A stretch of 64,000 bases of DNA, from the NCBI GenBank assembly GCA_037443035.1, contig JBBIPC010000007.1, positions 72,876 through 136,875 on the forward strand, written 5' to 3'. Shown piece by piece: positions 26,025-42,000 of the stretch; positions within the stretch are counted from its first letter, which is position 1, and each line of letters begins with the position of its first letter. The notes under the pieces were generated by a model. It had not been told where the DNA came from. It was given only the letters and a program-made list of their open reading frames with translations, and ran no database searches. The stretch comes from Chthonomonadales bacterium (GTDB taxonomy: Bacteria; Armatimonadota; Chthonomonadetes; Chthonomonadales; CAJBBX01). The position numbers were made by a program, and so were the translations under genes.

Positions 26025-27140
26025 TCATGCTATGGAGCCGCGGCATCGCTGCAGAGCCCTGATGACCGCCTCTTCTGGAACTTCGAAGCCCGGCTCGGCC
26101 CTCCCGACCTCTCTGAGCAAGACGAACCTGAGCCTGCGTGACAGCGTCTTCTTGTCCGCCATCATCCGTTCGAGAGCCGCTTCAGGCTCCATCCATGAAG
26201 GTGCCTCTGCAGGCAGACCCACATCGGCAAGCGCCTCTATGACCCTAGCCGTTACATTCTGCGAGGTGACGCCGATCTCCTCTCCCACGCGACATGCCGC
26301 CACCATCCCTATAGATACGGCCTCACCGTGGGTCAGGTGTCGATAGCCGGCAAGCGCCTCGAGTGCGTGGCCGACCGTGTGCCCGAAATTCAGGACGGCG
26401 CGTAAGCCCTGCTCGGTTTCATCCTTCGATACCACGTCGGCCTTGATCCGACAGGACCAGTGCACGGCTTCCGCCAACCGATTGGCGTCTCGGTTCGAGA
26501 TTGCGAATGCGCACGCCGTGAGCCAGTCGAGGAAACGGCCATCTCGAATGAAGGCATGCTTCAGGATTTCGGCCAGGCCAGACCGGAAATCACGGGCATT
26601 CAGAGTTTGCAGGGTCGTTGTATCCATCACAACAACTCGCGGCTGGTGGAAGACGCCCACGAGGTTCTTGCCCTGCGGTAGGTTCACGCCAGTCTTGCCC
26701 CCGATCCCCGCATCGGCCTGAGCCAGGAGCGTGGTGGGTGCCTGGACGAAAGCGATGCCGCGCATGTACGTACCCGCAGCGAACCCCGCAATGTCCCCGA
26801 CAACGCCACCGCCAACCGCCACAACGGCGCTTCGCCGATCAAGCCCCTGGCGGATCATGGCCTCGTAAAGGCGCGCCACTGCCGACAGGGTCTTGTATCG
26901 CTCGCCACTGCGCAGGCGGACAAGCGTGGATGGCACCCCTGCGGCATCCAGGCTCCGCAACACCGATCGCCCGTAAGCCTCTACTCGACCCGTACCCGTG
27001 ACGACTAGAACCCGCGAGGGTTCCAGAACGTTCAACATGATGCTGGCAATCCGGTCGAGACACCCCGGCGCAACATGCACCTCGTAGCTCCGGTCGCCCA
27101 GCGCGACTTTCAGGGGTTCGAGGCGTACCGCTTCGCTCAT
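26025..27140 (-). CDS. aroB: 3-dehydroquinate synthase
   Basis: Motifs: GGGVVGDIAGFAA, GGKTGVN, NFGHTVGHALE. The ATG at 27140 forms an ATGA overlap with the aroK stop; the ORF track start is at 27170. Confidence 0.92.
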   Translation of the reverse strand: MSEAVRLEPLKVALGDRSYEVHVAPGCLDRIASIMLNVLEPSRVLVVTGTGRVEAYGRSVLRSLDAAGVPSTLVRLRSGERYKTLSAVARLYEAMIRQGLDRRSAVVAVGGGVVGDIAGFAAGTYMRGIAFVQAPTTLLAQADAGIGGKTGVNLPQGKNLVGVFHQPRVVVMDTTTLQTLNARDFRSGLAEILKHAFIRDGRFLDWLTACAFAISNRDANRLAEAVHWSCRIKADVVSKDETEQGLRAVLNFGHTVGHALEALAGYRHLTHGEAVSIGMVAACRVGEEIGVTSQNVTARVIEALADVGLPAEAPSWMEPEAALERMMADKKTLSRRLRFVLLREVGRAEPGFEVPEEAVIRALQRCRGSIA

Positions 27141-27703
27141 GCTTCCCGATCCCGTCTCAGTCCGATCCATCGCGATGCCAGTTCCCTGTACGCCGCGAGA
27201 ACTTTGGCGGCGGCGTCCTCATGGCGAAGACCGGTGGTATCCACCGTCGCATCGGCGGCTGCTGCGTATAGCGGACTGCGCAGATCCAGCATCTCACGGA
27301 TACGACCCAGTGGATCCTCGACCCCCGCTAGCAGAGGACGCGAGGAACGATCGCCGCACCGTCGCAGGATCTCCTCTGGCTCCACACGAAGCCAGACCAG
27401 CACACCCGATTTGCGCAGGATTACGACGTTGGCAGGATCGAGGACAGCCCCTCCGCCGGTTCCGATGACAACATGGACCCGCATGGCGGCCTCGGCCACC
27501 GCCTCCCGCTCCAGACGCCGGAATGCGGCTTCACCCTCGCTAGCGAAGATCTGTGGCACGGGCCGAGCGGTCGCTCTTTCCACCAACTGGTCCGTGTCCA
27601 CAAATCGGAATCGGAGCGCCCGGGCACACCGCCGACCGATGGTCGTCTTCCCTGTCCCCATATACCCGATGAGGACAAGATTGGGGTTCAGCGTTTGGAC
27701 CAT
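27137..27703 (-). CDS. aroK: Shikimate kinase
   Basis: LIGYMGTGKTTIGR (Walker A), FVDTD, GEAAFRRLE, VIGTGGG. Confidence 0.92.
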   Translation of the reverse strand: MVQTLNPNLVLIGYMGTGKTTIGRRCARALRFRFVDTDQLVERATARPVPQIFASEGEAAFRRLEREAVAEAAMRVHVVIGTGGGAVLDPANVVILRKSGVLVWLRVEPEEILRRCGDRSSRPLLAGVEDPLGRIREMLDLRSPLYAAAADATVDTTGLRHEDAAAKVLAAYRELASRWIGLRRDREA

Positions 27704-28878
27704 CGTGCGCCAGTATAGCCTCTGGCCGCTAACGCTTCTCGATCCGCCTGCCAGTGAGCCAGGAATGCGCCGATGGAATCTCCACCGAACCTCTCCAACG
27801 CCGCATCGGCCAGAACGTAGGCGACCATGGCCTCAGCGATGACCGCCGCTGCGGGCACGGCACAGATGTCGGAGCGCTCGAAATGGGCTGGTACCGGCTC
27901 CCGAGTAGCGAGATCCACCGAGGCCAGCCGCTGGCGCAGAGTGGGCAGCGGTTTCATCGCACACCGCACGACGATGGGTTCCCCGTTGCTGATACCGCCT
28001 TCCACTCCGCCAGCGTTGTTGCTCAGCCGTACGTACCCGTCCCCTGGATCGTGGATGATCTCGTCATGGACTTCGGACCCTTTTCGGACCGCACCTCCGA
28101 AGCCAGCCCCGATTTCCACACCCTTCACCGCCTGAATGCTCATGAGCGCAGCCGCCAGACGCGCGTCCAGCCGCCTATCCCACTGGACCGGAGAGCCCAG
28201 GCCGAGCGGACATCCTAGAGCGATGACCTCGAAGATGCCGCCCAACGTATCGCCCTCCTCCGTGGCTTGGTCAATGGCGGCCTGCATGGCTGCCGAGAGA
28301 TCCGGATCCGCGCACCGAACAGGCGACGCTTCGACATCGTCGGCAAGGTCGCGGATTCTGGCCGGATCCACGGGAGGCCCAGAGACCTCGCCGATCGCGC
28401 ACACGTGGCTGTAGATCTCGACGCCCACCAACCCCAAGAGTTGCCGGCATAGCGCACCTGCCGCGACGAGAGCCGCCGTCGTACGCGCGCTGGAGCGCTC
28501 CAGGATATCCCGGATGTCCGCCAGATCGTATTTCAACGCGCCAGCGAAGTCCGCATGACCCGGTCTCGGCCGCGTGACTGGGGTACCGGGCGACTCGGGC
28601 TCGCTGGAGCTCATTCGGGCTTGCCAGTTGGCGTAGTCCTTGTTCCGGATCTGTAGCGTAACAGGACCTGGCATCGTGCGACCGTGCCTGACGCCCGACA
28701 ATACCTCCACTCGGTCCTGCTCGATCTGCTGGCGTTTGCCGCGGCCGTATCCGCGCTGACGTCGTGCCAGTTCCTCGTTCACCGACTCGATATTGACTGC
28801 CATCCCAGCCGGCAGACCATCGAGAATGACAGTGAGAACGGGTCCGTGGGACTCGCCAGAGGTCAACATGCGTAGCAT
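27688..28878 (-). CDS. aroC: Chorismate synthase
   Basis: MLRMLTSGESHGP..., RPGHAD, SARTTAA, VKGVEIG. The ORF track start at 28902 is GTG; the ATG at 28878 gives the canonical N-terminus. Confidence 0.92.
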   Translation of the reverse strand: MLRMLTSGESHGPVLTVILDGLPAGMAVNIESVNEELARRQRGYGRGKRQQIEQDRVEVLSGVRHGRTMPGPVTLQIRNKDYANWQARMSSSEPESPGTPVTRPRPGHADFAGALKYDLADIRDILERSSARTTAALVAAGALCRQLLGLVGVEIYSHVCAIGEVSGPPVDPARIRDLADDVEASPVRCADPDLSAAMQAAIDQATEEGDTLGGIFEVIALGCPLGLGSPVQWDRRLDARLAAALMSIQAVKGVEIGAGFGGAVRKGSEVHDEIIHDPGDGYVRLSNNAGGVEGGISNGEPIVVRCAMKPLPTLRQRLASVDLATREPVPAHFERSDICAVPAAAVIAEAMVAYVLADAALERFGGDSIGAFLAHWQADREALAARGYTGARWSKR

Positions 28879-28924
28879 GAGAGGTGTTTCAGCTCCATAC
28901 ACACGTAGCGCGTGCTAGAGACGC

Positions 28925-28961
28925 GAAAACGGGAGCGGCCTTCGAAGGGAAAGCCGCTCCC
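28925..28961 (-). terminator. Candidate Rho-independent terminator/attenuator after pilQ
   Basis: The minus-strand RNA reads GGGAGCGGC-(13 nt loop)-GCCGCTCCC followed by GUUUUCG. Stem arms are at 28953-28961 and 28931-28939, starting 20 nt past the pilQ stop. The U-tract is short. Confidence 0.45.
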
Positions 28962-28980
28962 GCCATTGCTCAGCCCTATG

Positions 28981-30771
28981 CTAGGGAGTGATGCCTGCCG
29001 AGACCACACCTTCCGAACCCGACGGATCGGGAAGGATGGACGGTGTCACGAACACCAGCAGCTCGCTGTCCGACACACGGTATTCGCGCGACTGGAAGAG
29101 CTGCCCAATCAACGGCAGGTCTCCGAAGAGCGGGACTTTCTTGATGCTTGTACCGTCGTTCTTCCGCACCAGACCCGCGATGGCGATGGAGTCGCCGTTG
29201 CGCACACGACGCGTGATGGGCCCTATGTACTGGTAGCTGATGATCGGGGCCGTGGTGCCATCGGGGCCGGTAACCTGGCCGGAGACGTCCGAAACGTAAG
29301 GCGAGATCGTCAGGGAGATGGTGTCATCGCCGTTGATTCTCGCCAGCACATCCATACCAGACTGAGCCTGGACGGTGGAGATATTCGTCTGCAAGATAAC
29401 CACACCGTTGCCGCCCGCTGTTGGACTGGTGTAGAAGATCGGTATCTCCCGGCCGACGTTGAGGCTCACTGGCAGGTTGTTCAGCGTGGTCACCATGGGC
29501 GAGCTGACGAGACGGCCCTTGCCCTCGGTCAGTGTAGCCCGGAGCTGGGCGGCCACGTTGCCTGTAGCGTAGTTCATGAACACTTGGCCTGCTGCGAAGC
29601 CGGGGTTGCCTGCGACCAGGTTGCCTCGTGCAATCTGCCAGTCAATGCCGAACTGCTTAAGGTCGTCCTGGGTCACTTCGACGAACTCTGCCTTGATCAT
29701 GAGCTGCTTGGGAGCGATATCGAGGAGCCGGATGATCTCTTTCAGCTCGCGCAGCGCGTCTTCATCGCTGGTTCGGACGATGATCGTGTTGTCTATGTCA
29801 TAGGCGAGCATGGACTGAATCCCCTCCGGCACCAGTCCACCACCGCCGCCGCCAATACCGCCCTGGCCGCCGAAGCCACCCTGGCCGCCGAAGCCCCCAT
29901 AGCCTCCACGGCCGCCGAACTGACCGCCTCCGCAACCGCCATAGCCGCCGCCATAGCCGCCGTAGCCGCCATAGCCGCCGCCATAGCCGCCATAGCCGCC
30001 GCCGATACCGCCACCGCCCGGCCGCATGCCACCACCGAACTGGTTGGCCTCAGCGTCGTTCCCGCCAGGCTTGGGCCCGCTCGGCACTACCGACGGAAGC
30101 GGCGTCTCTCCCGTGCCCTGGCTGCTCTGCGGTGCTGGCGGATTGACCTGAACGCCACCGTTCGTGGGTTGGCCTATGTTGCGGCCACTCGCGTAGGGCG
30201 TGCGCCGCTCGCCAAGGGATTCGAACATCAGTTGCCGTAGGTAGTCGCCTCTACCACTCAGTTCGGGTCGCGTCAGGAACGCCACGATCTCCGAGGGCCG
30301 GGAATTCTGAACGCGGATCCGCTCGGTGATCAGCCGCTTGGGCGGCTCGGGAACCAGAGGCGCCTGGCTCTGGCTCGTCGCTGCCGGCTTGTCCACCTTC
30401 GGTGTCTCGGCTGCCGCGTCAGCCCCCTTAGGACCGATGATGTAGATACCGCCGTCCACCCGCAACGAAGCTCCGGCTGCGCGGCAGATCATCTGCAACA
30501 CTGTCTCGAGCGGCTTCTTCTCGAGCATCAGGTTGACCCGCCCGTAGGGCTTGTCACTAGCTTCGATGACAATCTCCGCACCTGTCTGCGCCATGAGCAT
30601 TCTCACGGCAGCCTGGAGATCGGCGTCGACAAGGTCCACACGTTGCACGATCATCTGGCCTGCGCCGCTCTCCTGAGCGCGTGCGGTCACGGATGCCGCG
30701 CCGGATATGGCGAAGGCTAACGTCGCCGCTAGCGCCCACCTCCAGCTAGCTGAACGACTTCGAAGGCCCAT
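28981..30771 (-). CDS. pilQ: Type IV pilus secretin PilQ with a Gly/Tyr/Phe-rich insertion
   Basis: ORF 28981..30825. The ATG at 30771 is preceded by GGAGGAGG with an 8-nt spacer, and a signal peptide follows (WRWALAATLAFAISGAASVTARA). N0-like domain: VDLVDADLQAAVRMLMAQTG.... C-terminal secretin domain: LVSSPMVTTLNNLPV...KKVPLFGDLPLIGQLFQS...ELLVFVTPSI. Confidence 0.9.
   Translation of the reverse strand: MGLRSRSASWRWALAATLAFAISGAASVTARAQESGAGQMIVQRVDLVDADLQAAVRMLMAQTGAEIVIEASDKPYGRVNLMLEKKPLETVLQMICRAAGASLRVDGGIYIIGPKGADAAAETPKVDKPAATSQSQAPLVPEPPKRLITERIRVQNSRPSEIVAFLTRPELSGRGDYLRQLMFESLGERRTPYASGRNIGQPTNGGVQVNPPAPQSSQGTGETPLPSVVPSGPKPGGNDAEANQFGGGMRPGGGGIGGGYGGYGGGYGGYGGYGGGYGGCGGGQFGGRGGYGGFGGQGGFGGQGGIGGGGGGLVPEGIQSMLAYDIDNTIIVRTSDEDALRELKEIIRLLDIAPKQLMIKAEFVEVTQDDLKQFGIDWQIARGNLVAGNPGFAAGQVFMNYATGNVAAQLRATLTEGKGRLVSSPMVTTLNNLPVSLNVGREIPIFYTSPTAGGNGVVILQTNISTVQAQSGMDVLARINGDDTISLTISPYVSDVSGQVTGPDGTTAPIISYQYIGPITRRVRNGDSIAIAGLVRKNDGTSIKKVPLFGDLPLIGQLFQSREYRVSDSELLVFVTPSILPDPSGSEGVVSAGITP
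29836..30040 (-). repeat. Imperfect GGY/GGF codon repeat tract encoding the PilQ low-complexity insertion
   Basis: Encodes GGGMRPGGGGIGGGYGGYGGGYGGYGGYGGGYGGCGGGQFGGRGGYGGFGGQGGFGGQGGIGGGGGG. The plus strand is runs of gccgcc/atagcc/gaagcc. Confidence 0.85.
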
Positions 30772-30856
30772 ATGTTCGTCCTCCTCCCGACCCTTTGCTA
30801 TCTTGCATCTCGACGCGACAAGCAACTCCAGCCTTCAGAACATGCTCGCCGCGGAC

Positions 30857-30894
30857 GGTCGGCCTGCAGACCACCAGATTACCACAGGCCGACC
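30857..30894 (-). other. 10-bp perfect GC-rich hairpin in the gap between the N0-protein gene and pilQ
   Basis: ggtcggcctg (30857-30866) and caggccgacc (30885-30894) are exact reverse complements, separated by an 18-nt loop. No U-tract follows. Confidence 0.5.
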
Positions 30895-30909
30895 ATCAAT
30901 CGTTCTGGC

Positions 30910-31086
30910 CTAACGGCCCCAGCCGCCTATGCCGCCGCCGCCGCCGCGGAAGCCACCGCCATAGCCACCACCGAAACCGCCGCCGCGGAAGCCGCCACCG
31001 CCGAAGCCGCCGTAGCCGCCACCGCCCCAGCCGCCACCACCTGAGCCCCTGCCTCGTTAGCAACCGATTAAGCCACCCCCTATACC
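30910..31086 (-). pseudogene. In-frame Gly-rich continuation of the upstream N0-protein gene beyond its stop codons (decayed tail?)
   Basis: In the same frame as CDS 31087..31647, reading continues after TGA (31089-31087) as GIGGGLIGC. After TAA (31059-31057) it reads RGRGSGGGGWGGGGYGGFGGGGFRGGGFGGGYGGGFRGGGGGIGGWGR, ending at TAG (30912-30910). No in-frame ATG is present. Confidence 0.4.
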
Positions 31087-31647
31087 TCACCCTCTGAAGC
31101 ACCCCCCGATGCCGCCGCCGTAGCCGCCGTAGCCACCGTAGCCACCGCCATAGCCCATACGCTGGTTGGAGATGATCGCCCCACCACCCAGGTTATAGGA
31201 CAGATCCACGGCGTCTGCGTAGTTGACCACGATTTTTACGGTCCGGGTTTTCTTCTCCGGCTGCGTCTCCTCTGTGGTGGTCGTCGTCGTCTCCTGCGTG
31301 ATCTCTTCCTGTTTCAGCGAGACCGTGTAGACGCCATCCTGAACGCGGTACGTCAGAGGAAGCTGCGTACCCTTCAGAATGTTCTCCAGGGCGACTCGGA
31401 ACGTCACATTGTTCAAGGACGCCGTCACCGTGCCCTGGACGTTCTCGTCCAACAGGTAGTTCACACCAACCATGTTGAACAGCATTTTCAGAGCGTACCG
31501 GATGTCGGCGTTCTCGAAGTTCAGCGTCACTTTCTTGTTGGATACGTCTCCTTCGTCCTGGGCGTGCACAGGCACCGCGGCTGCCACCGCCAACGCCATG
31601 ATTGTGACCAGCACACCCGTTCGAGCCCATCGCATCGCAGGACCCAT
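31087..31647 (-). CDS. Secreted stand-alone secretin-N0/STN-like domain protein with a Thr-rich linker and GGYGG tail
   Basis: ORF 31087..31665. The ATG at 31647 is preceded by GAGGAGG with a 9-nt spacer. Signal peptide: MGPAMRWARTGVLVTIMALAVAAAVPVHA. N0-like domain: VTLNFENADIRYALKMLFNMVGVNYLLDENVQGTVTASLNNVTFRVALENIL. Tail: GYGGGYGGYGGYGGGIGG. Confidence 0.75.
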   Translation of the reverse strand: MGPAMRWARTGVLVTIMALAVAAAVPVHAQDEGDVSNKKVTLNFENADIRYALKMLFNMVGVNYLLDENVQGTVTASLNNVTFRVALENILKGTQLPLTYRVQDGVYTVSLKQEEITQETTTTTTEETQPEKKTRTVKIVVNYADAVDLSYNLGGGAIISNQRMGYGGGYGGYGGYGGGIGGCFRG

Positions 31648-31738
31648 ACCTTTCAACCTCCTCATGGGCCAATACTTCTGCCCAAAGGCTTATTCTCGAC
31701 CTTCCCGTTATGAATCTACGCCGCTTGCCATCGTACGG

Positions 31739-32632
31739 TTACTGCTCGCTCTCGGCCCCGATGGGCCCACCTGAGCCACCACCGCCCGGAGGCGCGTAGC
31801 CACCACCGCCACCGCGGAACATCATACCGGCTCCGCCGGGCCCACCGCGTAGTCCACCCACGTAGGACGTCCGCGGCTGACTACCCACATCGGTCAACGG
31901 TACTTCCTGAGTATACGTCACATTCCCCACTTTTCGCTTGAGCACGACCGAGCGAGAGCGTATGGCTTCGACGCGGTAGTCACCCAGCATGTCGCCAGGA
32001 CGGACCACGTTCTGTCCCTCGGGCCCCTCGATAAGCGCATATACGCCCTGTCCTGTGGCGATTCCCGCCACCCGACGGTTCGGAACTTCCTCGACTTCGA
32101 TCTTCTCCTCCGGCGGACGGATGACCGATTCGCGGGTAGCGATGCGGTACGGTTCGACCAGCGTGATCGCCGGTGGAGGTGGCGGAGTTGTGTTCCACCA
32201 CGGTGCGAACGGATCCGGTCGTGCATTCGGCGGCTTGCTTGTCACTTTCGGTCCTTGTGCGGCCGCTTCCTGCTGAGGAGCGCCACCCATGGGACCACCC
32301 CCCATGCCGGACATACCTCCCGCGAACGGCGCACCTGAGCCCATCCCACCCATCATCGGCGGAGCGCCGCCGCTCGTCTGCATCTGCATCGCAGGACCGC
32401 CCATGACGATGCCCGGTGATGCTGCGCCACCGTCGCGTTCTGTGCTGTCGTCCTCCGAAGGGGCTCCGCCTGATGGCGCCTGCGCCGTGGTGCCGCCAGT
32501 GGTGCCCTGGTCACCGCCGCCGCATCCGCCGACGAGTACCGCAGCCAGTGCCATCGCCACCAGTAGCATCCATCTATGGTCAGTTATTCGAGGTATCCGC
32601 AACTCAGGTTTCCTCACTTCCGCGAATCGCAT
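31739..32632 (-). CDS. PilP-like lipoprotein with Gly/Met/Pro-rich N-proximal and C-terminal segments
   Basis: Lipobox MLLVAMALAAVLVGGC. C-terminal beta-domain resembles the PilP/GspC-HR fold (GIATGQGVYALIEGPEGQNVVRPGDMLGDYRVEAIRSRSVVLKR). Alternative start at the ATG at 32569. Confidence 0.65.
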   Translation of the reverse strand: MRFAEVRKPELRIPRITDHRWMLLVAMALAAVLVGGCGGGDQGTTGGTTAQAPSGGAPSEDDSTERDGGAASPGIVMGGPAMQMQTSGGAPPMMGGMGSGAPFAGGMSGMGGGPMGGAPQQEAAAQGPKVTSKPPNARPDPFAPWWNTTPPPPPAITLVEPYRIATRESVIRPPEEKIEVEEVPNRRVAGIATGQGVYALIEGPEGQNVVRPGDMLGDYRVEAIRSRSVVLKRKVGNVTYTQEVPLTDVGSQPRTSYVGGLRGGPGGAGMMFRGGGGGYAPPGGGGSGGPIGAESEQ

Positions 32633-32638
32633 CGCCTG

Positions 32639-33622
32639 TCAATTGGCTGCTTCCATGGTAGATCCGCCCCGCGTCCCGGCGCCGCCACCGCTGGCCCGGG
32701 GACCGCCCATCATGGGCGGACCCATGGGTGGACCACCCATCGGCGGACCACCGCTGCCAATACCTCCTGGCCGCGCCATTCCCATGGAACTCGCGCCAGG
32801 TCCACTGACCGTACCAGGCATACCGCCGGGCCCACCGACTCTACCTGGAGGTCCGCCCATGCCCATGGGACCGCCCATGCCCATAGGGCCGCCCATACCC
32901 ATAGGGCCGCCGCCACCGCCGCCCGAACCGCTGATACGCGGTATCTGGACGGGCAGGTTATCCCGCACGATGATCGTGAAGGTCACTATGTACGTAGCAG
33001 AAAGGTTCGGACTGTTGCCGCTAATCTGGAGTCCATCCACCACCGGCACACCCGCTTGCGACAGCGACGACCACGACTTGATGTGCTGCATAAGCTTGTC
33101 GAGGTTCTTGGCTCGCACGGCCATCTGGTAAGAGTAATGCAAAACAGGCCCGTAGCCTTCGCCCGGCTGTCCCACATCGATCGTGTTCGGATCGGGACCG
33201 TAGGAGGGCAGAACGAGCGTACCCGGGTTCTCCCAGATGATCCCGTTCAGCTTCCTTTCACGCTCCATGTGGTTGCGTACGGTCCGTATGAACCGCTCTG
33301 GCCATGAACGACCGCGGTTGGGTAGGAACGTGCGCAGCCACGTCGTCAACGTATCCTTGGAGTAGCCAATGACGGGCATGTACTGCTTCTCGTAGACGCT
33401 CCATTCCGCCTCGGCGAGCGCTTTGTCCTTGTTCGCCTGCTCCAGCGCCCGCGTTGCCATGGGCAGTTTGTCGGCGCGCGCCTGAACTGCCGACAGGTCC
33501 TGCTCGGCCTTCTTCTTGGCATCCAGGGCGCCTGTTATCACCGTGAAGTAGAGGCCAGCGCCAACGAGAAGCGCAACCACCAGTCCGATGATATTGATGT
33601 GGAGAATGGTCAGCTTCGACAT
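32639..33622 (-). CDS. pilO: PilO-like T4P alignment protein with a Gly/Met/Pro-rich C-terminal tail
   Basis: ORF 32639..33703; ATG at 33622 (MSKLTILHINIIGLVVALLVGAGLYF). Single TM, a coiled-coil segment, then a globular domain. Position immediately after pilN. Sequence similarity to PilO is judged only by architecture. Confidence 0.6.
   Translation of the reverse strand: MSKLTILHINIIGLVVALLVGAGLYFTVITGALDAKKKAEQDLSAVQARADKLPMATRALEQANKDKALAEAEWSVYEKQYMPVIGYSKDTLTTWLRTFLPNRGRSWPERFIRTVRNHMERERKLNGIIWENPGTLVLPSYGPDPNTIDVGQPGEGYGPVLHYSYQMAVRAKNLDKLMQHIKSWSSLSQAGVPVVDGLQISGNSPNLSATYIVTFTIIVRDNLPVQIPRISGSGGGGGGPMGMGGPMGMGGPMGMGGPPGRVGGPGGMPGTVSGPGASSMGMARPGGIGSGGPPMGGPPMGPPMMGGPRASGGGAGTRGGSTMEAAN
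32850..32903 (-). repeat. 18-bp tandem repeat x3 inside pilO (encodes GGPMGM x3)
   Basis: Plus-strand units: ggtccgcccatgcccatg / ggaccgcccatgcccata / gggccgcccatacccata. Confidence 0.85.
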
Positions 33623-33638
33623 GTCACATGCGCTCCCT

Positions 33639-34454
33639 CTACTTACCGCCCACGCCGCCCGGTGCCTGCATCCCTGCGGCCATCGGTACGTTCGGCGCAC
33701 CACCGCTACCCATCATGGAAGCCCCCATGCCCATGCTCATGCCGCCAGACCCACCCGGCGCCGTGAATCCGCCGCCCATACCGGGCATGCCAGGCATACC
33801 GCCTGCTGCACCTCCTGCGGCAGCTCCGCCTCCGGCGCCTCCGTATGCCGGCGCTCCAGCGATGGGTTTGACCAGCGTCAGGGTCACCGTGAAGTCGTAG
33901 CCTCCAGCGTTAGGTGGACGGATGCCCGACCCTTGCGGCTGACCATTGAAGCCAGGCGGCACAGGGAACGTCGGCAGTCCTGTCAACTGAATGTTCACGT
34001 GGCTCACGTTGGGGTTGTGTTCCATCCACATCAGGTAGTGTCCTACCTGAGCAAGGCTCGGAGCATAGGCAGTGAGGGTTACCGTTTGCCCAGCGGGCTG
34101 CAGGGAATAGTAAAGCACGCCCTTCATCGTGTAATCCCGGATGTTATAGACGACCGGCTGATAGGTCGTGCTGTTATGGAGCCTGGCGTTCTTCACGAAG
34201 TCACGCTTGGCCCGGATAGCGCTAGACTGCTCGTTGATCTGATTGGCCTGGGCCTGGAGCCTGTCTGCCTTGTCTGCGTCCGGCGTCAGGCGCTGGGTCT
34301 CGGCGACAAGAGCAGCCGTCTGTCCATCTATCTGCACCTTGCCGAAGATGAAACCGCCGATCACAACCAGCAAGATGATGACCCAGAGGACCATCACGTT
34401 CCGGCGCTTGGCACCTTCGTAGATGTAGGGGGGCAGGAGGTTGATTCGTAGCAT
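33639..34454 (-). CDS. pilN: PilN T4P alignment protein with a Gly/Ala/Met-rich C-terminal tail
   Basis: The N-terminus MLRINLLPPYIYEGAKRR carries the INLLP PilM-binding motif, followed by a TM helix (VMVLWVIILLVVIGGFIF), a coiled coil and a ferredoxin-like domain. Confidence 0.85.
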   Translation of the reverse strand: MLRINLLPPYIYEGAKRRNVMVLWVIILLVVIGGFIFGKVQIDGQTAALVAETQRLTPDADKADRLQAQANQINEQSSAIRAKRDFVKNARLHNSTTYQPVVYNIRDYTMKGVLYYSLQPAGQTVTLTAYAPSLAQVGHYLMWMEHNPNVSHVNIQLTGLPTFPVPPGFNGQPQGSGIRPPNAGGYDFTVTLTLVKPIAGAPAYGGAGGGAAAGGAAGGMPGMPGMGGGFTAPGGSGGMSMGMGASMMGSGGAPNVPMAAGMQAPGGVGGK

Positions 34455-34472
34455 CGTGCTGGTTCCCCGTCC

Positions 34473-35747
34473 TTACTTCTTCCCGCGCTTGGCCGGTTTG
34501 GCCTTAGCAGGTGTCGGTACGGCCACCATGTCGCGTGCAGCCAGGCCCGTGGCCACGGCGAAGATCGGTGACAGCTCGCGGATGTGGTCGGCAGAGTAAC
34601 TGCGCGCCGCCACGCTCGCATATTTGAAAGCATCCGCCACTAGCGTGGGAATGCCCAGTTCGATGCTCAGGAACTGATCGAGGTTCTTCAGACCTGCGGT
34701 TCCCCCGCAGAGGAGGATTTCGTCCACGTGACCGTCGGCGGTTCGCCCTGTGTAGTACTCGATGGAACGGCGGAACTCGGCCACCAGCTCACCCAGTGTC
34801 GGTGCGATAGCCATGAAAACCTGCTGGGTCGTGGGATCGGCTGTGGACGCCGCCACTGGCATCGTCTCTGTAGGCTGCGCAGTCTCGCCCAGGTCGAAGT
34901 CGGTGGCGCCAGTGCTAACCCCGGCGGTGGGCTGTTCGGCTGACAGATCGTAGAAACCCTCCCCCACGGTCGGCGCTTGTACTGCGGGTGCTTCCGTCAG
35001 GATGACCTCGCCGTGCCGCCGTTTCAGTTCTTCCGCCTGTTCCTCGTCGACTCCGAGGTGCTGTGCGATGGCTGCCGTCATCGTATCTCCTGCGAGCGGG
35101 AGCGTGCGCGGGAACGCCAGGATGCCATCGCGGAAGATACCGATATCCGTCGTGGCTGCGCCGATGTTGATGATGGCCACGGTCTTCCTGCCGTAAGGAT
35201 CTGGCCCCAGCTCGATGAGGCATCTGGCTGCCGCCAGCGGCTCCACATCGATGGCAGCCGGGCTAAGACCTGCGGCGAACAGCATATTCACATGACGATC
35301 CACCATCTCCTGTTGGGCGACCGCCATGAGGACTTCCATGTTCTCTGCGTCGGCGTCCGCATCGGCACGAATAACCGGCTGGAAGTCCATGATGACTTCA
35401 TCGGCGGCGAAAGGAACATGCCTCTCCACTTCCCATTTCATGGCCTCTGCCAGCTCGGAGTCCGACATCTTCGGCACTTCGATCACGCGTACAACGAGTG
35501 CGCCCTGACCAGCCACGGAGCTCACTGTCCGCTTCGTGGAGATGCCAGCTTCCTTGAGCATCTTCTTGACGGCATCCCCGAGCGTCTTCGGATCTACGAT
35601 CACGCCGCTGTCCATGACCTCCGGTGGTGTCGGCGCCATGCCCATGGCCTTTACCGTGACGCCATTGCGACCCGGCACGAGCTCCACGGCCTTCATGAAC
35701 TTCGAGCCGATATCTAGTCCGACCGTCGGTCCTCCCGAACCGCCCAT
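34473..35747 (-). CDS. pilM: PilM actin-like T4P assembly ATPase-fold protein
   Basis: ORF 34473..35804; the ATG at 35747 follows GGGGGG. Motifs: VGLDIGSKFMKAVEL and LCGGTAGLKNLDQFLS. Contains a roughly 60-aa low-complexity insert and a Lys-rich C-terminus. Confidence 0.88.
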   Translation of the reverse strand: MGGSGGPTVGLDIGSKFMKAVELVPGRNGVTVKAMGMAPTPPEVMDSGVIVDPKTLGDAVKKMLKEAGISTKRTVSSVAGQGALVVRVIEVPKMSDSELAEAMKWEVERHVPFAADEVIMDFQPVIRADADADAENMEVLMAVAQQEMVDRHVNMLFAAGLSPAAIDVEPLAAARCLIELGPDPYGRKTVAIINIGAATTDIGIFRDGILAFPRTLPLAGDTMTAAIAQHLGVDEEQAEELKRRHGEVILTEAPAVQAPTVGEGFYDLSAEQPTAGVSTGATDFDLGETAQPTETMPVAASTADPTTQQVFMAIAPTLGELVAEFRRSIEYYTGRTADGHVDEILLCGGTAGLKNLDQFLSIELGIPTLVADAFKYASVAARSYSADHIRELSPIFAVATGLAARDMVAVPTPAKAKPAKRGKK

Positions 35748-35817
35748 ACTGGGACCCCCCGATTGAATCGTAAGACGACACAGGCACCTGCCCGCACGGG
35801 GCAAGCTCGCCCGCTAG

Positions 35818-36009: not shown

Positions 36010-39000
36010 TCACGGATACGTCTGCGGATAGAACGAAGGACTCACCGTCATATAGTAAAGGTCTGTTGTACCCGACCGGGTGCTTGCCCAGAACACCCAC
36101 ACACGGTCAACGAATGGATCTTTCACTGCCGTGACCTGCCCTTCGTTCACGGCCGCGTCGGTAGGCAACGAGGCTTCGCCCGTCGTCTGATCCCCGGGTG
36201 TTGCTGCAACCGTCAGCTCGTCGCCCCAGCTTACCCTGTAATCAGCCTCTACAGCGCCACCGCCGCTCAGCGCCTGCACAACATGGATCGTGGCGCCCTC
36301 GTCAATCTCCGTGAAATACAACCGGCCTCGCAGCCAATCGATCTCCACCGGTCCGCGGTTGCCGCTGACTTGGATGTTGGATCCGATGGTCCCGTCCGCG
36401 TTGCGCACGACGGGCCGCGGTAGGCGAACCATGAGCCGCATGGTCTTGAAGTAGAGACCGCCGGAACTGGCGACATTGCTGCCTGTCTTCCGGTAGATGA
36501 GCCACAGGCGGGAGACCGTCGTCGGCCGTACGCTCTGCGCCCCGGGTCGGACTGCGTCGGGCTGGGTGATCCTTCGCGGATTGTCCGAGAGATCCAGGAG
36601 CGCCACTGCGCCCGTGTTGGCGCCAGGCGCCTGAACTGCGGGCTGGGGCGCGAATCCAGCATCGGACTGCCAGCCCGCCGGAACGCTAATGACGCCTGTA
36701 TCGGACCTCGTTACGTTCAGGCGAATCGTCTGCGGCGTATACGACACCGTCACCGCGTCGTTGATCTTGGGAGCTACATCCGGGAACGTGATCGTACCCG
36801 ACTGCGGATCCACCACCACGCGGCCTCCTAGCGTCGAGTTGAAGTAGAGCTTGCCAGTGGGCGCATCGAAGACCGGTGCGCCGACATTCACCCGCGTACC
36901 ATTGACCCGAATGACAATCCACGGACTGTTGCCAGTACCATCCACGAACGCTCCCGTGTTGGGATCCCGGTAGATCCACGCAACGTCCCGAGCGATCCAG
37001 GACTGGGACGCTCCGTACCGAGCTACGAGCTCGTTCTCCACCCGCGGGAACGGAGTCACTGCTTGCTGCGCCTGGCCAACTGCCAGCCGCTGTAGCTCGT
37101 ACCGTGTCATGAACGTTTCCGGCTGACCCCGATCGGCAAAGGCAGCGGTATAGACCACGTCCACGTGGGTTATCGTGCTGGCTGCACGCTGATCCGGATG
37201 GAGACGACGCGGAACGGGAATGGGATTCGAAAGCCCCTGCAGGCCACCCGGTGTGGGCAGCGCGATATCGGCCGACCATCCCGAGGCATTGCGCATACCG
37301 TCCGGATTCCGGTTGGGATCGTAGGCATTGACGTTGTAGTACAAGCGCGTCCTGCCCGAAGTGCCGCCGTACCAGAATACGAAGCCGGTACCGCCGACGA
37401 CGAGCGGCCTTACTCCCTGTTTCTGAAGGGTCGGGTCGTTGGGGAAGGAATAGGGTATGCCACCAGGAGCCGAGCTCAGATCTGGCGCGTATACGCCGTT
37501 GCCGGACCTGGCAATGGGCACGTAGAACGTCCTGGCGTCCAACGAAGCGCCACCGGCACCACCAGCGGTCTTGTTCACGGCTCCTTGCCAGAACAGCCAC
37601 AAGTCCGGACTCCGTCCGGTTGGAGACTGGTCCAGAACGAGGGACGGCGCACCATGCACCACCATGGGTTGGCCAAGCTGGTTGACGGGTATCACGCCTG
37701 GTACGACCTGCGTCCGTGCACCAGCCACGACATCCGACGACTGAGATGGGAACAGAGCCTGGGTTGCACCCAATGGCGGGAACGGAGTTGCCAGGCCTGT
37801 GGGGCTCCACCATCGTGCTGGCGTGCCGACAGCTACCTCGAACCGCCAACCGAAGAGGAGCGGCGCAGAGCTGCCCCAGCCGCCAGCAGGGTCGAACGCC
37901 GACGCGGCCCCATTCAACTGTGCGTAGAAGATGCCCCATGGAACATCCTGCATGGTGGGGCCGGCAGCGAAGTTCTCCGGTCGGTTACTGGTCCACGCCA
38001 GCAAGATGGCCGTAGACGGCGCGTTCCCCGAGCCTGTGGTGTGGAAGACCACCGACGGCATGAGGTTCGCCCCGAAGGCTGCTCCCGAGGGGTTCTGAGC
38101 CGTCGGAGCTCTCAGGTCCACCTGCGGCAAGGTGCCGTCCTGCTGCATGTACGGCCCGGTGGGCCATGGCCGCACGGCCGGCGCATTCGTCAGACGCGCC
38201 TCCGTGACCTGGATCTTCAGTCGGAACGGGTTCTGCACCATCGACTCGACAGGCGCACTGACTGAACTCTGGCGGTCATTGGGATCCACATACGACCGGA
38301 AGTCGGGCACACCGTTATCATCTATTGCAGCAGCAAGCGGGTTGTCGGCGGCATTGTAGATGGACAGCCATGCCCGCCACTGAGCCGGGTAGTTATCCTC
38401 GAAGACATAGACAGGCGCCGAGTAGGTCCCAGCAGGGGTACCGAGCGGTGGCGCAATGCCGATTCTTGGTCGTACATCCACGCCGATGCGCCGGAGCTCT
38501 GGCAGCAACCCGAAGGGATCACCATGGGCGACGTCCGGAATGGACAGCACGGTGGGCCCACTGTCGCCCGGCAACGGCTTGTGCAGTGTTGGCCGCACGT
38601 TGAGACCCACCCCCCAGCCAAGTGGGTTGCCGGGACGAACGTAGGGGTTCCCAGGCACGAGGTCGGGTCGCAGTTTGCTGAAACCCGGCACCATGCGAAG
38701 GTCGAAGGGCCAGAACAAGAACGGCTCGATGGGGAGACCCGCGCTGTTGTCATGGTCCAGCGACGAGATGATGCCATAGTTGCTGCCTGGCGTGAGATCC
38801 ACGTTGAACGGCATGGGCAGGGACTTGCCCAGTAGCGGAGAGTTCAGTTGCCATGCCAGCGGCATGTCGAACGGATGCCCAGGCGCAGTACCGGTGACCA
38901 GCCTCCCCTGGCCGTCGTAGACCGGCAGGAAGGGGCTTACCTGGTCGCTCTGCAGGCGTGCCCATGAGCCAGGATAGGCCCATGCGTCCGGCGAATCACC

Positions 39001-42000
39001 GGCAAGCTTAGCCACCCGTAGGTTCACCAGGTTAACGTTGCCGGTGTTCTTGATCGTAAAGGGCGCGAACATCCTCAAGCCGTAAGGGTCGTCGAACGGC
39101 GATGTCGAGCCCAGGTACAGGCCCACACCGTTCGGCGAGAACGGCATTCCTGGCGCGTACCCGGCGGAATGTGGCACCTTGCCAAGGTCGATGGTCTCTT
39201 CCTCGGCGCGCAGACTCAGATCCGGCGGCACTGCCACGCCGGTGCTGAACTGCCGGAAGACTTCCTCTCGGGCCGTCTGTGTGACCTGGGCGGCCTGCGT
39301 CTGGATCGCCGTGCCCTGGTAGCGTCCATCCCCATTGCTGTCGATATACACGACGATGTCGCCGTAGTAACCCGCGCTCGGCGCCAGCGTGCCCGCCGGG
39401 GCTTCCGACGGGGTCTGCGGTGGCCTGCCAAGTTGGATCAGCATCGGCGCTGCCAGGCCAGGAACGGCGCCCGTGGGATTGTACGGGTTGTTGTTGATGT
39501 CGAAATAGGTCAAGTTGACATTGGCCGGTTGATACTTGGGCACGCTTACCGTCAGCTCCAGGGGTACGTACCTCAGCTCGCCGTTCAGCGACTTGTTCGG
39601 CAAGGTCGCAGGCTTGCCAGCAAGGTCCACCCCGCCCATGCGCACTCTTGCGGCCGTTCTGTCGATGTCGGGATAGTCCGGCGATGTGTTGGGCAGATTG
39701 GCGGGGAAGACCTCCCACGGCAACGGGTTCATGACATTGCCGGTCGCGCGAATGAAGGGATCGCTGGCGTTCGGATCCCAGCCCCACCGCAGACCCCGCC
39801 GTTCCACGCGAACATTGTTCAAGCGCTGATTCAGCTTGTAGAGGTTGGAGCGGTCTGCGATGAACAGAGCATCATGCCTACGGCCCTGACTGTCTGCGCC
39901 CAGGTACGTTGCCGAACTGCCATGCGTGATGAATCCCAGCGGCGCCACAACGCTCTTCAGCGGAGGCTGCCCCGCAGGCGGATTGTAGCGGTTGTTGCCG
40001 TTCGCCAGGACTTCCTGTGCAGCGACCGCATTGGGTACAGCCGACACCCAGCCGATAATGTTGAGAGCGCTGGGGCCGATCTGCGCACCGGTTGGCACCG
40101 CCCTGGTTGTCAGAGCCAGCGGATGAGCGATGGAGATCTCTTTGCGCGTCGTTACCTTCAGTGTCGTCGCGAGCGAACCATCCAGTCCGTAGGGATCGCT
40201 GGTGTTCTTGTCAATAGTGGCCTGCCCTGCGGCGAGTTGCAGCGACGACACCTGGACACCCGTCTCCGTCGCCAACTGTGCCTGGGCCAGAATCGTGTAG
40301 CGGCGCCCTGGCGTCTGGGCATCGGCCTGGGAACCGCGTCCAAGCGGTATGGCAACCTTGGCCACCCAAGCGTAGAACTGGGATCCGGCCGGATAAGGCG
40401 GGCTTGGCGGCACAGGTGGAGTTGGCGCTGCGTAGTCGCGCACGGCGCCAACTGTCAGCGGCGGCCGTGTCTGACCTGCGCCGAACAGACGGAACGTCAC
40501 CGTCGGTAGGGGCGGATTCGCTGATGTGCTAACGACGACACCCCACGCGGCGGCGTAGATGGTATCACCCCACTCGTACACGATGAGCTTGTCGGGACTT
40601 GTCAGCGTGTACTGGCGCTCATGTCCCGAGTTCCATTCCGTGAGCGGCGAGAGCTTGTCCGCATTATCCTCGGGCAAGCCGAAGAAGTCGTAAGCGAGCG
40701 GAACGCCTTTGGGCGGCGTGTCGCCCTTGCCGTACCAAAGCTCGACAAGCTTCATCGTCATGCTCGTCTCGTCCGGCTCGTCACTGTAGTACGGCTCGTC
40801 GGGCGTAACCATGCCCAGCCCGGCTCCGTCGGCGGCGGTCTTTGCGCGCCAGTAGGCACGCATTTGTCCGTTCACCTCGCCCGTATCCCTGTTGCCTTCG
40901 TCAGCACAGAACATCCACGAGTTCGGCGTAACCGCGTCGGCTCCGCGCTGTCCGACGGCTGTGGGGTAGATCACCGGGTCCGTGAGAGGGCCGTTGGCGC
41001 CCATGGCAGTAAGAGGCACCCGGCCGATCATGGCATCGGTGTAGCTCCACATGAGATCGCCTGCCGTGAGCCGCCCTTGGCCAAGCGCCGAGAGTCCGAT
41101 GATGGCGCCAGTATCCAACGGCAGCAAGATCGCCGGGAACTTGTCGCCGGTGAACGTGTCCTGATACCAGGGCTGCGGCAGGAGATGATCCAGATAGACC
41201 GCAGACGCCCGCGTCGAGCCGCGTGACCAGCTCTCCCACAGGAGTCCTCCCGACGTCGGATTGCCGGTGCGCGACGCATCCAAAGCGAACACACGACCGT
41301 CTCGGTTGGCTACGAAGACGACCTCCTTGCCTCCATTCAGCTCCACCCCGGCTCCGTTGTTCACCTGAGGAACCCAGACTGGAGCCGTGAAGGCCGTCTG
41401 CTCCGCCGCAACATCGCCCGACTTGGCAGGGTTGGCAGGCGAGTTGGCGTACGGATAGGTCCACTCCGGCTGCAGGAACCCGCCGGCGTCCTTGGGCTGT
41501 CCGCTGGCGTTCGCGGGAGCCTTGATGCAGTACACACGGCCGCCAGCCGAGAAGACGTACTTGCCACTATCCGTGAGTGCACCAGGAAGGACGATGGGAT
41601 CCAGCCGCGTTGTGGCCTCGGGCCATTGCCAGATTGCCTTGCCGTCGTTGGCGGGGTTGGAGATGCGTACTCTCGGATCCAGCGTCTGCAGGTCCACACA
41701 GTAGACGTGACCATCACCGGCACCGACAATAACGCGATCCGTCCGGAACTGAGCATCCAGCTTCGGTGCACTGGGCGAAGCCGCGAAGCTTGTTTTCGCT
41801 GGATCGTCCGTGTAACCACCGAAGCTCCCGTCGGGCAGCAGCGTACCGCCCTTGTCGAGCCACTTATCTCGTGCCAGGGTCGGCCATGTCATCAGCCGGC
41901 GTGTGGTGCCTGGGATACCTGGCGTATCGGGCTGCCCAGGGGTACCCGGGCCCGTCGCGATGGTTGCGGGGAAGGGCTCTCCAGCCGCGTTCGTTCGGCC

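Follow-up and report, generated by a model that had tools for sequence, protein, structure and literature searches.

A complete type IVa pilus cluster lies in the DNA of a Chthonomonadales bacterium (Armatimonadota) analyzed here, a stretch of 64,000 nucleotides (nt) that is referred to as the window. Six co-oriented genes, pilM, pilN, pilO, pilP-like, N0 and pilQ, form a minus-strand block at positions 28981-35804 of this window, and within positions 28981-34454 the five periplasmic proteins of the block (PilN, PilO, a PilP-like lipoprotein, a stand-alone N0 protein and the secretin PilQ) each carry a Gly-dominated tract. Comparisons of homologous sequences indicate that these tracts are conserved in position, in length range and in composition class, but not in sequence. 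The reading favored here is tentative, with a rough probability of 0.4: the pilus frame of Armatimonadota may have acquired and kept uncharged, Gly-rich disordered segments that would form a soft layer in or under the secretin vestibule.

The tracts are 30-90 amino acids (aa) in size and contain 34-64% Gly; the residue numbers in Table 1 are counted from ATG 30771 for PilQ and from ATG 33622 for PilO. All five proteins have their tracts at the places given in the original prediction, an earlier description of this DNA made from its letters alone. A tract of about 90 aa had been claimed for this protein, and 85 aa indeed follow the lipobox, but the first ~30 aa are a mixture of G, T, S, D and E and not purely Gly-rich, while the second half is mostly G, M, P and A. 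This segment joins the lipid anchor to the HR-like domain and is the only true linker among the tracts. The PilO tail contains GPMGMGGPMGMGG. Single Cys residues are found inside the tracts of PilQ (aa ~280, GGYGGCGGGQ) and N0 (aa 189, GGIGGCFRG), and likewise in the close relatives P0185 and P0186; these residues could form disulfide cross-links between chains in the periplasm.

The richest 30-aa stretch of each of the five proteins is 0.53-0.73 Gly, versus at most 0.30 in all of the other ~40 open reading frames (ORFs) of the window, including the secreted proteins of 2797, 1688 and 1007 aa and the pilins. The comparison was extended to 382 other proteins of at least 100 aa from the window and 42 Armatimonadota loci, a control set made up of genes adjoining pilus loci and not of a whole proteome, and none of these reached 0.40 Gly per 30 aa (Fisher p = 1.4e-11 for 5/5 vs 0/382). 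The 82 controls with an N-terminal hydrophobic (export or membrane) segment had a maximum of 0.27 Gly. At a background of 9% Gly, the probability of at least 16 Gly in 30 aa is 8e-10 per position, and chance alone would yield about 1e-4 such stretches in the 146,567 control residues. Tracts of this type were also absent from about 35 secretins of other phyla, which were sampled without Gly bias, and from the genes upstream of them; thus the statement that canonical PilN, PilO, PilP and PilQ have no such tracts holds for these loci and for V. cholerae PilQ. Taken together, these data demonstrate that the tracts are not explained by chance, and they do not support a compositional quirk of the whole proteome. 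One protein outside this control set, at locus L059, was removed by the flank rule; its tail is rich in Arg, Gly and Asp and is charged, unlike the tracts described here.

Table 1. Positions of the genes, domains and Gly-rich tracts of the pilM-to-pilQ block in the window, followed by secretins with inserts in other loci (positions within those loci)
Feature	Position	Strand	Details
pilM	34473..35804	-	Pfam PilM_2, E = 6e-56; maximum Gly per 30 aa 0.30, no Gly-rich tract
pilN	33639..34454	-	MLRINLLP motif and one transmembrane helix, periplasmic core, Gly-rich tail
PilN C-terminal tail, aa 200-271	33642..33857	-	72 aa, 40% G; G/A/M/P-rich; free end
pilO	32639..33622	-	transmembrane helix, long helix, alpha/beta core, tail; longest ORF to 33703
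PilO C-terminal tail, aa 232-321	32660..32929	-	90 aa, 46% G; GPMGMG-type repeats; free end
pilP-like lipoprotein gene	31739..32632	-	lipobox LVGGC, linker, putative PilP/GspC-type HR domain, tail
PilP-like N-terminal tract, aa 35-119	32276..32530	-	85 aa, 34% G; after lipobox LVGGC
PilP-like C-terminal tail, aa 259-292	31757..31858	-	34 aa, 56% G; free end
N0 protein gene	31087..31665	-	signal peptide, N0/STN domain, Thr/Glu linker, strand 1-helix 1 half N domain, GGY tail
N0 C-terminal Gly/Tyr tail, aa 160-192	31090..31188	-	33 aa, 52% G; truncated in this genome
N0 tail continuation, same frame	30913..31086	-	beyond TGA 31087-31089 and TAA 31057-31059
pilQ secretin gene	28981..30771	-	ATG 30771, longest ORF to 30825; Pfam Secretin E = 1.5e-34 and second half of Secretin_N
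PilQ N domain, first half	30211..30330	-	AlphaFold2 model: strand 148-153, helix 159-167, extra helix 173-187
PilQ insert, predicted disordered, aa 189-310	29842..30207	-	122 aa, pLDDT 33-47; closed loop, both ends anchored in the N domain
PilQ Gly-rich core, aa 236-313	29833..30066	-	78 aa, 63% G
PilQ N domain, second half	29722..29820	-	strands 318-324 and 329-334, helix 337-350; Secretin_N positions 26-69
PilQ secretin (outer-membrane channel) domain	29032..29529	-	Pfam PF00263, aa 433-598 of the 614-aa ORF
Paralogous secretins	L040 8831-10732; L044 8471-10924; L046 8984-10768; L058 8732-10852		26-31% identity to the PilQ secretin domain
GspD with insert at the same N-domain loop	L081 8001-10790; L082 8001-10496		insert of 130-150 aa, GGY/GGF/GGS-rich

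The site of the PilQ tract was located from a structural model and from an alignment to a solved structure. PilQ has the domain order N0, N domain with the insert, and secretin domain, and no AMIN domains were found in it with Pfam. In an AlphaFold2 model of PilQ built from 99 sequences, the elements of the N domain are split by the insert into the two halves listed in Table 1. A PilQ profile matches solved PilQ and GspD structures, and it aligns V. cholerae PilQ (6w6m) on both sides of the insert, with the first half extending up to residue 280; the equivalent loop of 6w6m is about 10 aa long. The order of elements in the model, together with the 6w6m alignment flanking the insert, places the tract between helix 1 and strand 2, in a loop of the secretin-proximal N domain, which agrees with the original prediction of a tract inside an N domain. 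The same site carries a "variable insertion (residues 217-267)" in InvG; this loop is disordered in most structures, is the proposed source of the periplasmic constriction in the closed state, and threads outward between the N domains in needle-bound InvG (PMC6155069). However, the InvG loop is about 50 aa of ordinary sequence, whereas the insert here comprises 120-135 aa, 78 of which make up a core with 63% Gly, and, unlike the InvG loop, it has a composition conserved throughout the phylum and four partner proteins with matching tracts.

Conservation of the tracts was assessed in homologues from across Armatimonadota. The PilQ insert is Gly-rich at the same relative position in 118 of 120 database homologues, and the other two are N/S/T-rich there. 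Because word seeding could favor Gly-rich matches, sampling was repeated with queries free of the tracts. A profile of the C-terminal secretin part alone led to 80 genome loci, in which 28 of the 30 full-length Armatimonadota PilQ orthologues reach at least 0.5 Gly per 30 aa at a locus guanine-plus-cytosine (GC) content of 0.50-0.68; the two exceptions have a long P/T/S/A-rich insert at the same site. With the folded part of PilO as the query, a G/M/P tail was present in 57 of 59 homologues, the remaining two being fragments, and with the folded part of N0 as the query 28 homologues were recovered, nearly all full-length members of which end in 60-110 aa of Gly plus F, Y or W. The gene order was identical in the 15 loci that contain the whole pilM-to-pilQ block, and tails are found on most PilO, PilP and N0 proteins in these loci; the C-terminal tail of PilP is present in most orthologues. 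PilN tails are Gly-rich in Chthonomonadales and in some Fimbriimonadales, and A/P-rich elsewhere. While the positions are the same across the phylum, both the sequence and the length of the tracts are hypervariable among homologues. Of the two outcomes that the original prediction named as refuting it, absence of the tracts from close orthologues was not observed, and neither was an equal frequency in unrelated exported proteins among the controls from next to pilus loci. The closest relatives of the window PilQ are from Chthonomonadales, with Fimbriimonadales, Capsulimonas and other Armatimonadota farther away, and tracts occur in the cultured Capsulimonas corticalis (P0080) as well as in metagenome-assembled genomes assigned to Fimbriimonas and Chthonomonas.

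The composition of the tracts, pooled over 10-12 genomes, falls into two classes by membrane side. On the inner-membrane side (PilN, PilO and PilP), the tracts have 44-50% Gly, 10-13% Pro, 10-14% Ala, 4-8% Met (7-8% in PilN and PilO) and ~3% aromatic residues. On the outer-membrane side (N0 and PilQ), they have 57-67% Gly, 0.6-3% Pro, 5-13% aromatic residues and 4-11% Gln/Asn, with Leu also present; N0 tracts are 67% Gly and 13% F+Y+W with less than 3% charged residues, and PilQ tracts are 57% Gly, 5% aromatic and 11% Q+N. Charged residues are below about 6% in both classes. Within genomes, co-variation of the residues other than Gly was seen between N0 and PilQ (r = 0.35 vs 0.17 across genomes, permutation p = 0.0006) and between PilN and PilO (r = 0.75 vs 0.59, p = 0.0008), and no co-variation between the inner- and outer-membrane-side classes was found by the same test in 7-11 genomes. 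Like-with-like binding of inner-membrane-side to outer-membrane-side tracts was rejected because their compositions do not co-vary. At the level of DNA, short tandem repeats of 9-30 nt occur in the coding regions of the tracts, including an 18-nt repeat at 32849-32911 in pilO and repeats at 29848-30013 in pilQ, and the use of the four Gly codons, all of them present, is close to that outside the tracts.

The identities of PilQ and PilM are secure, and that of PilN is based on its motif and topology. Searches of Pfam and NCBIfam gave no matches for the PilN, PilO and PilP-like proteins of the window, and the Pfam PilN model in particular did not match the window PilN. Nonetheless, this protein starts with MLRINLLPPYIYE, in which the canonical INLLP motif can be read, followed by a hydrophobic helix, and PilN orthologues are found at the same position in the 15 loci. 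The start of PilO is probably ATG 33622 and not GTG 33703. The AlphaFold2 model of PilO has a mean predicted local distance difference test score (pLDDT) of 79, with a helix at 3-81, a core to residue 218, and a pLDDT of about 45-50 from residue 234. A fold search with this model returned M. xanthus PilO (3jc8_Oa) as the best match in the PDB (E = 7e-4, probability 1.00), followed by P. aeruginosa PilO (2rjz and 5uvr). At the sequence level, Pfam T2SSM matches 3 of 12 PilO members, which is weak support, and a profile of PilO orthologues searched against PDB sequences gave nothing useful. For the lipoprotein, a profile of 11 orthologues gave weak best matches in the PDB to N. meningitidis PilP (4av2_M) and to the HR domain of GspC (3oss_C), both with E = 0.03, and Pfam T2SSC matches 4 of the 11 orthologues (best E = 2e-4). 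The assignment of the lipoprotein as a PilP is thus weak but consistent, and because its HR-domain matches are weak, the protein is named PilP-like.

The N0 protein is, by sequence, a paralogue of the PilQ N-terminus. It matches Pfam STN (E = 5e-8), its aa 43-160 match positions 1-117 of TIGR02515 (PilQ), and BLASTP aligns it to the N-terminus of PilQ from the same genome with E = 5e-7. In most complete Armatimonadota loci examined, the N0 gene sits between pilP and pilQ (L002, L007, L008, L010, L012, L018, L021, L023, L025, L027-L030 and L036); canonical clusters have no stand-alone N0 gene. The protein might cap or complete the N domain of PilQ, or it might provide a second docking site for PilP. 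In this genome, the frame of the N0 tail continues past its stop codon and encodes GIGGGLIGC, a second stop, and a further 48 aa (GGW/GGY/GGF/GGR) that end at a third stop, with tandem repeats at 30931-31040, whereas the L002 orthologue runs for 263 aa with no interruption. A truncated protein of 186 aa (P0184) is on record for an NCBI contig and is 100% identical to the window N0, and the tails of P0185 and P0189 are also truncated or frameshifted. Possible origins of the interruption are a genuine nonsense mutation and misassembly of the repeat, and readthrough at this site is a third possibility. In L004 (7953-8726), a masked run of N falls in the N0 tail and is followed by an Arg/Leu/Trp repeat in another frame, which suggests another case of repeats that are hard to assemble and annotate.

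The tracts are predicted to be disordered, with a pLDDT below 50 over those of PilQ and PilO, and the disordered matrix that had been suggested earlier fits the topology of four free ends and one closed loop. Given this topology, most of the tracts cannot set distances or act as spacers; the peptidoglycan spacer of the original prediction is possible for the N-terminal linker of the PilP-like protein, and for none of the other tracts because these do not join two anchored parts. Tracts that are free ends or loops would instead behave as grafted polymer chains. At 12-15 copies, the stoichiometry of other species, the about 380 residues of each protomer set would amount to roughly 4,500-5,700 residues per machine. 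On the secretin side, the Gly/aromatic loops and tails could give a mesh of weak cohesion within and beneath the vestibule and so add a soft constriction or gasket, which would extend the role proposed for the short InvG loop, and the Pro-containing tails of PilN, PilO and PilP could form an extended brush on the inner-membrane PilNOP cage. The length and sequence of the tracts would change continually through replication slippage in their short GGN-rich repeats. A likeness to the tails of GroEL can be drawn for the inner-membrane side, where the uncharged tails of the Chthonomonadales PilN and PilO have C-terminal GGM/GPM/MMGG repeats and the proteins are expected to form a ring, as judged from other species. 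The tails of GroEL, of about 13 residues, are short and lie in the cytoplasm, where they act on folding clients, whereas the PilN and PilO tails are 70-95 aa long and periplasmic. In GroEL, disordered Gly-Met C-terminal tails line the ring cavity and are functionally required (PMC11978752).

However, it should be noted that several observations weigh against a soft layer in or under the vestibule. The placement of the chains is drawn from topology, and the loop of needle-bound InvG runs outward and not into the lumen. The tail of N0 is cut by stops in this genome and is truncated or frameshifted in some relatives, and therefore the full tail may be dispensable. Several PilN tails of Fimbriimonadales are not Gly-rich, and L007 has the N0 tail only, its PilO, PilP and PilQ being without Gly-rich tracts; the full set of tracts is therefore not universal, and the outer-membrane-side tracts are the most widely conserved, since PilN tails vary and L007 keeps the N0 tail alone. 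Furthermore, the co-variation test ignores the relatedness of the genomes and has an n of only 7-11, the exported control set is small (82 proteins) and confined to neighbors of pilus loci, and the family assignments of PilO and PilP come from weak matches.

The main alternative is that the tracts serve as flexible, length-adjustable connectors across a wide or variable periplasm, with tails that might thread the peptidoglycan entropically. The precedent is PilW of Thermus thermophilus, a functional equivalent of PilP that is likewise encoded between pilO and pilQ and has a GspC-like HR domain; PilW is described both as Gly/Pro-rich and as a linker that is flexible, the Thermus periplasm is about 70 nm, and when PilW residues 163-216 are deleted the inner-membrane density moves by 7 nm (PMC13039148). 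By this description, the likeness concerns a flexible region before the HR domain, and here it extends to aa 35-119 of the PilP-like protein only, a linker from anchor to HR-like domain that connectors explain well. Armatimonadetes also share OmpM/SlpA-type outer-membrane tethers with other diderm Terrabacteria (PMC9388160), membrane-anchored disordered chains can thread peptidoglycan without energy input (10.1101/2020.11.24.396366), and the 10-13% Pro of the PilN, PilO and PilP tracts favors extended chains. Nevertheless, in Thermus the flexible part of one component links anchored parts, whereas here five components are involved and their tracts are mostly free ends or a closed loop; these would leave the spacing of domains unchanged unless the ends bind some partner. 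The lack of compositional co-variation between the two membrane sides also speaks against connectors, and the literature searched gave no width for the periplasm of Armatimonadota. Connectors as the general function of the tracts are therefore considered rather unlikely.

A soft layer could also be taken further, by analogy, as a bacterial counterpart of the nuclear-pore barrier, in which Gly/aromatic chains on the N-domain ring and on N0 would make a cohesive, self-healing plug with the Pro-containing PilNOP brush beneath it. FG-nucleoporins share with PilQ and N0 uncharged disordered chains, F and Y residues spaced in a Gly/Gln background, and many copies on the ring of a conduit. However, there is no sequence relationship, Gly is far higher here (57-67%), and the comparison is one of analogy only. 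Such a barrier, which would cover Armatimonadota and, sporadically via GspD, other lineages, is regarded as unlikely.

The tracts might alternatively be neutral by-products, in which slippage-prone GGN repeats expand at insertion-tolerant sites and persist without a specific function. The short tandem repeats inside the tracts, their hypervariable sequence and length, and the truncated or frameshifted N0 tails of this genome and its relatives are as expected for such by-products, and all of the sites, being termini or the variable loop, are known or obviously permissive. Neutral expansion does not, however, account for the retention of tracts by five proteins throughout the phylum over a locus GC of 0.50-0.68, or for their absence from the 382 neighboring proteins. 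The two composition classes are kept by membrane side with charged residues almost excluded, the Asn-rich tail of P0192 is still rich in Gly and aromatic residues, and the Gly codons are mixed and not one repeated codon. A neutral origin without function is thus judged improbable.

Gly-rich inserts are not restricted to the PilQ of the pilus cluster. Second secretins of Armatimonadota at L040, L044 (two inserts), L046 and L058 have Gly-rich or Gly/Ser-rich inserts, and the L081 and L082 GspD proteins, which belong to ordinary type II secretion operons of other lineages, have an insert at the same loop (Table 1); the GspC, GspL and GspM partners of these two GspD proteins have no Gly-rich tails. 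A Gly-rich variable loop is therefore a recurrent trait of secretins, and Armatimonadota stand out in that the trait extends to the entire periplasmic frame. These inserts weaken the earlier suggestion of a seal for a bulky tip complex, taken here as a seal or an expandable collar specific to a complex of the 2797-, 1688- and 1007-aa proteins encoded upstream. A giant ORF does adjoin pilM upstream in the window and in most complete Armatimonadota loci, and the pilins are very large; nevertheless, the paralogous secretins have inserts as well, which points to a property of the secretin vestibule, and the type II GspD proteins have theirs with no giant genes nearby. A role specific to a bulky tip is accordingly very improbable. 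The least probable explanation is a specific chemistry, either peptidoglycan binding or covalent attachment, as PilQ has none of the AMIN peptidoglycan-binding domains common in PilQ proteins, or binding of Cu(I) by the Met-rich tails of PilN and PilO, as Met-rich periplasmic segments do in copper-resistance proteins; no conserved motif was found in the tracts, their Met is a trait of particular lineages that gives way to A, P or F in other orders, PilN orthologues do not keep the C-terminal Lys, and pili are not known to be linked to copper handling. A conserved C-terminal Lys for attachment to peptidoglycan was rejected on the same ground, and a C-terminal sorting signal on the tails was rejected for want of a transmembrane helix and of conservation.

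The remainder of the block and its surroundings resemble known pilus loci. As in the canonical PilMNOPQ systems of Pseudomonas, Myxococcus, Neisseria and Vibrio, the gene order and folds are those of pilMNOPQ and aroK and aroB lie downstream of pilQ, but the canonical systems are without the tracts, and this cluster has the extra N0 protein and a PilQ without AMIN domains. Directly downstream of pilQ, at 26025-28902, is aroC-aroK-aroB (chorismate synthase, shikimate kinase and dehydroquinate synthase, names taken from the ORF translations), and this order echoes the pilMNOPQ-aroK-aroB arrangement of Proteobacteria despite the distance between the phyla. PilM, whose gene heads the pilMNOP-N0-Q block, is an actin-like cytoplasmic partner of PilN. 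An acidic, Thr/Ala/Pro-rich low-complexity insert at aa ~265-325 separates the two halves of its actin-like fold, and its C-terminal tail is Lys-rich (PTPAKAKPAKRGKK); both are cytoplasmic and unlike the Gly-rich tracts in composition. Upstream of pilM on the same strand are the giant genes for the 2797-, 1688- and 1007-aa proteins, then three pilin-like genes, and beyond these a prepilin peptidase, pilC, a pilT-like ATPase and a pilB-like ATPase. The giant ORF next to pilM on the same strand (36010-44403, 2797 aa) has a sub-threshold match to Golvesin_C as its sole Pfam match, and its counterparts in other complete loci (L004, L007, L008, L010, L016, L018, L021, L023, L025, L027, L029 and L030) are 1200-1500+ aa long up to the point where the flank ends.

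Long antisense ORFs of 280-442 aa cross the Gly-rich coding regions on the plus strand (28912-30240, 32289-33131 and 33588-34451), and these are most likely artefacts of GC-rich, repeat-rich sequence. The first two were considered as real genes and rejected, because reaching the secretin domain requires reading the pilQ frame through the insert.

The separate parts of the feature have precedents in the secretin variable loop, PilW and the GroEL tails, of which the secretin variable-loop site of InvG and the Gly/Pro-rich PilW of Thermus are absent from the original prediction. In the open-access literature searched, for Gly-rich or disordered segments of PilN, PilO, PilQ or secretins and for type IV pili of Armatimonadetes, the tracts are undescribed. 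The feature itself is clear-cut and, by sequence comparison, phylum-wide. In practical terms, gene calls in metagenome assemblies come out truncated or frameshifted because of the repeats. The presence of the tracts in the cultured Capsulimonas corticalis makes the feature directly testable.

Secretins open a hole of 6-8 nm in the outer membrane without making the envelope leaky, and the known solutions to this problem are folded gates. The thousands of uncharged disordered residues predicted here suggest sealing or cushioning by soft matter, or a coupling of the membranes in diderm Terrabacteria. Altogether, these data show that large additions specific to a lineage can be built on the secretin variable loop, in type II secretion as well as in the type IVa pili of Armatimonadota.

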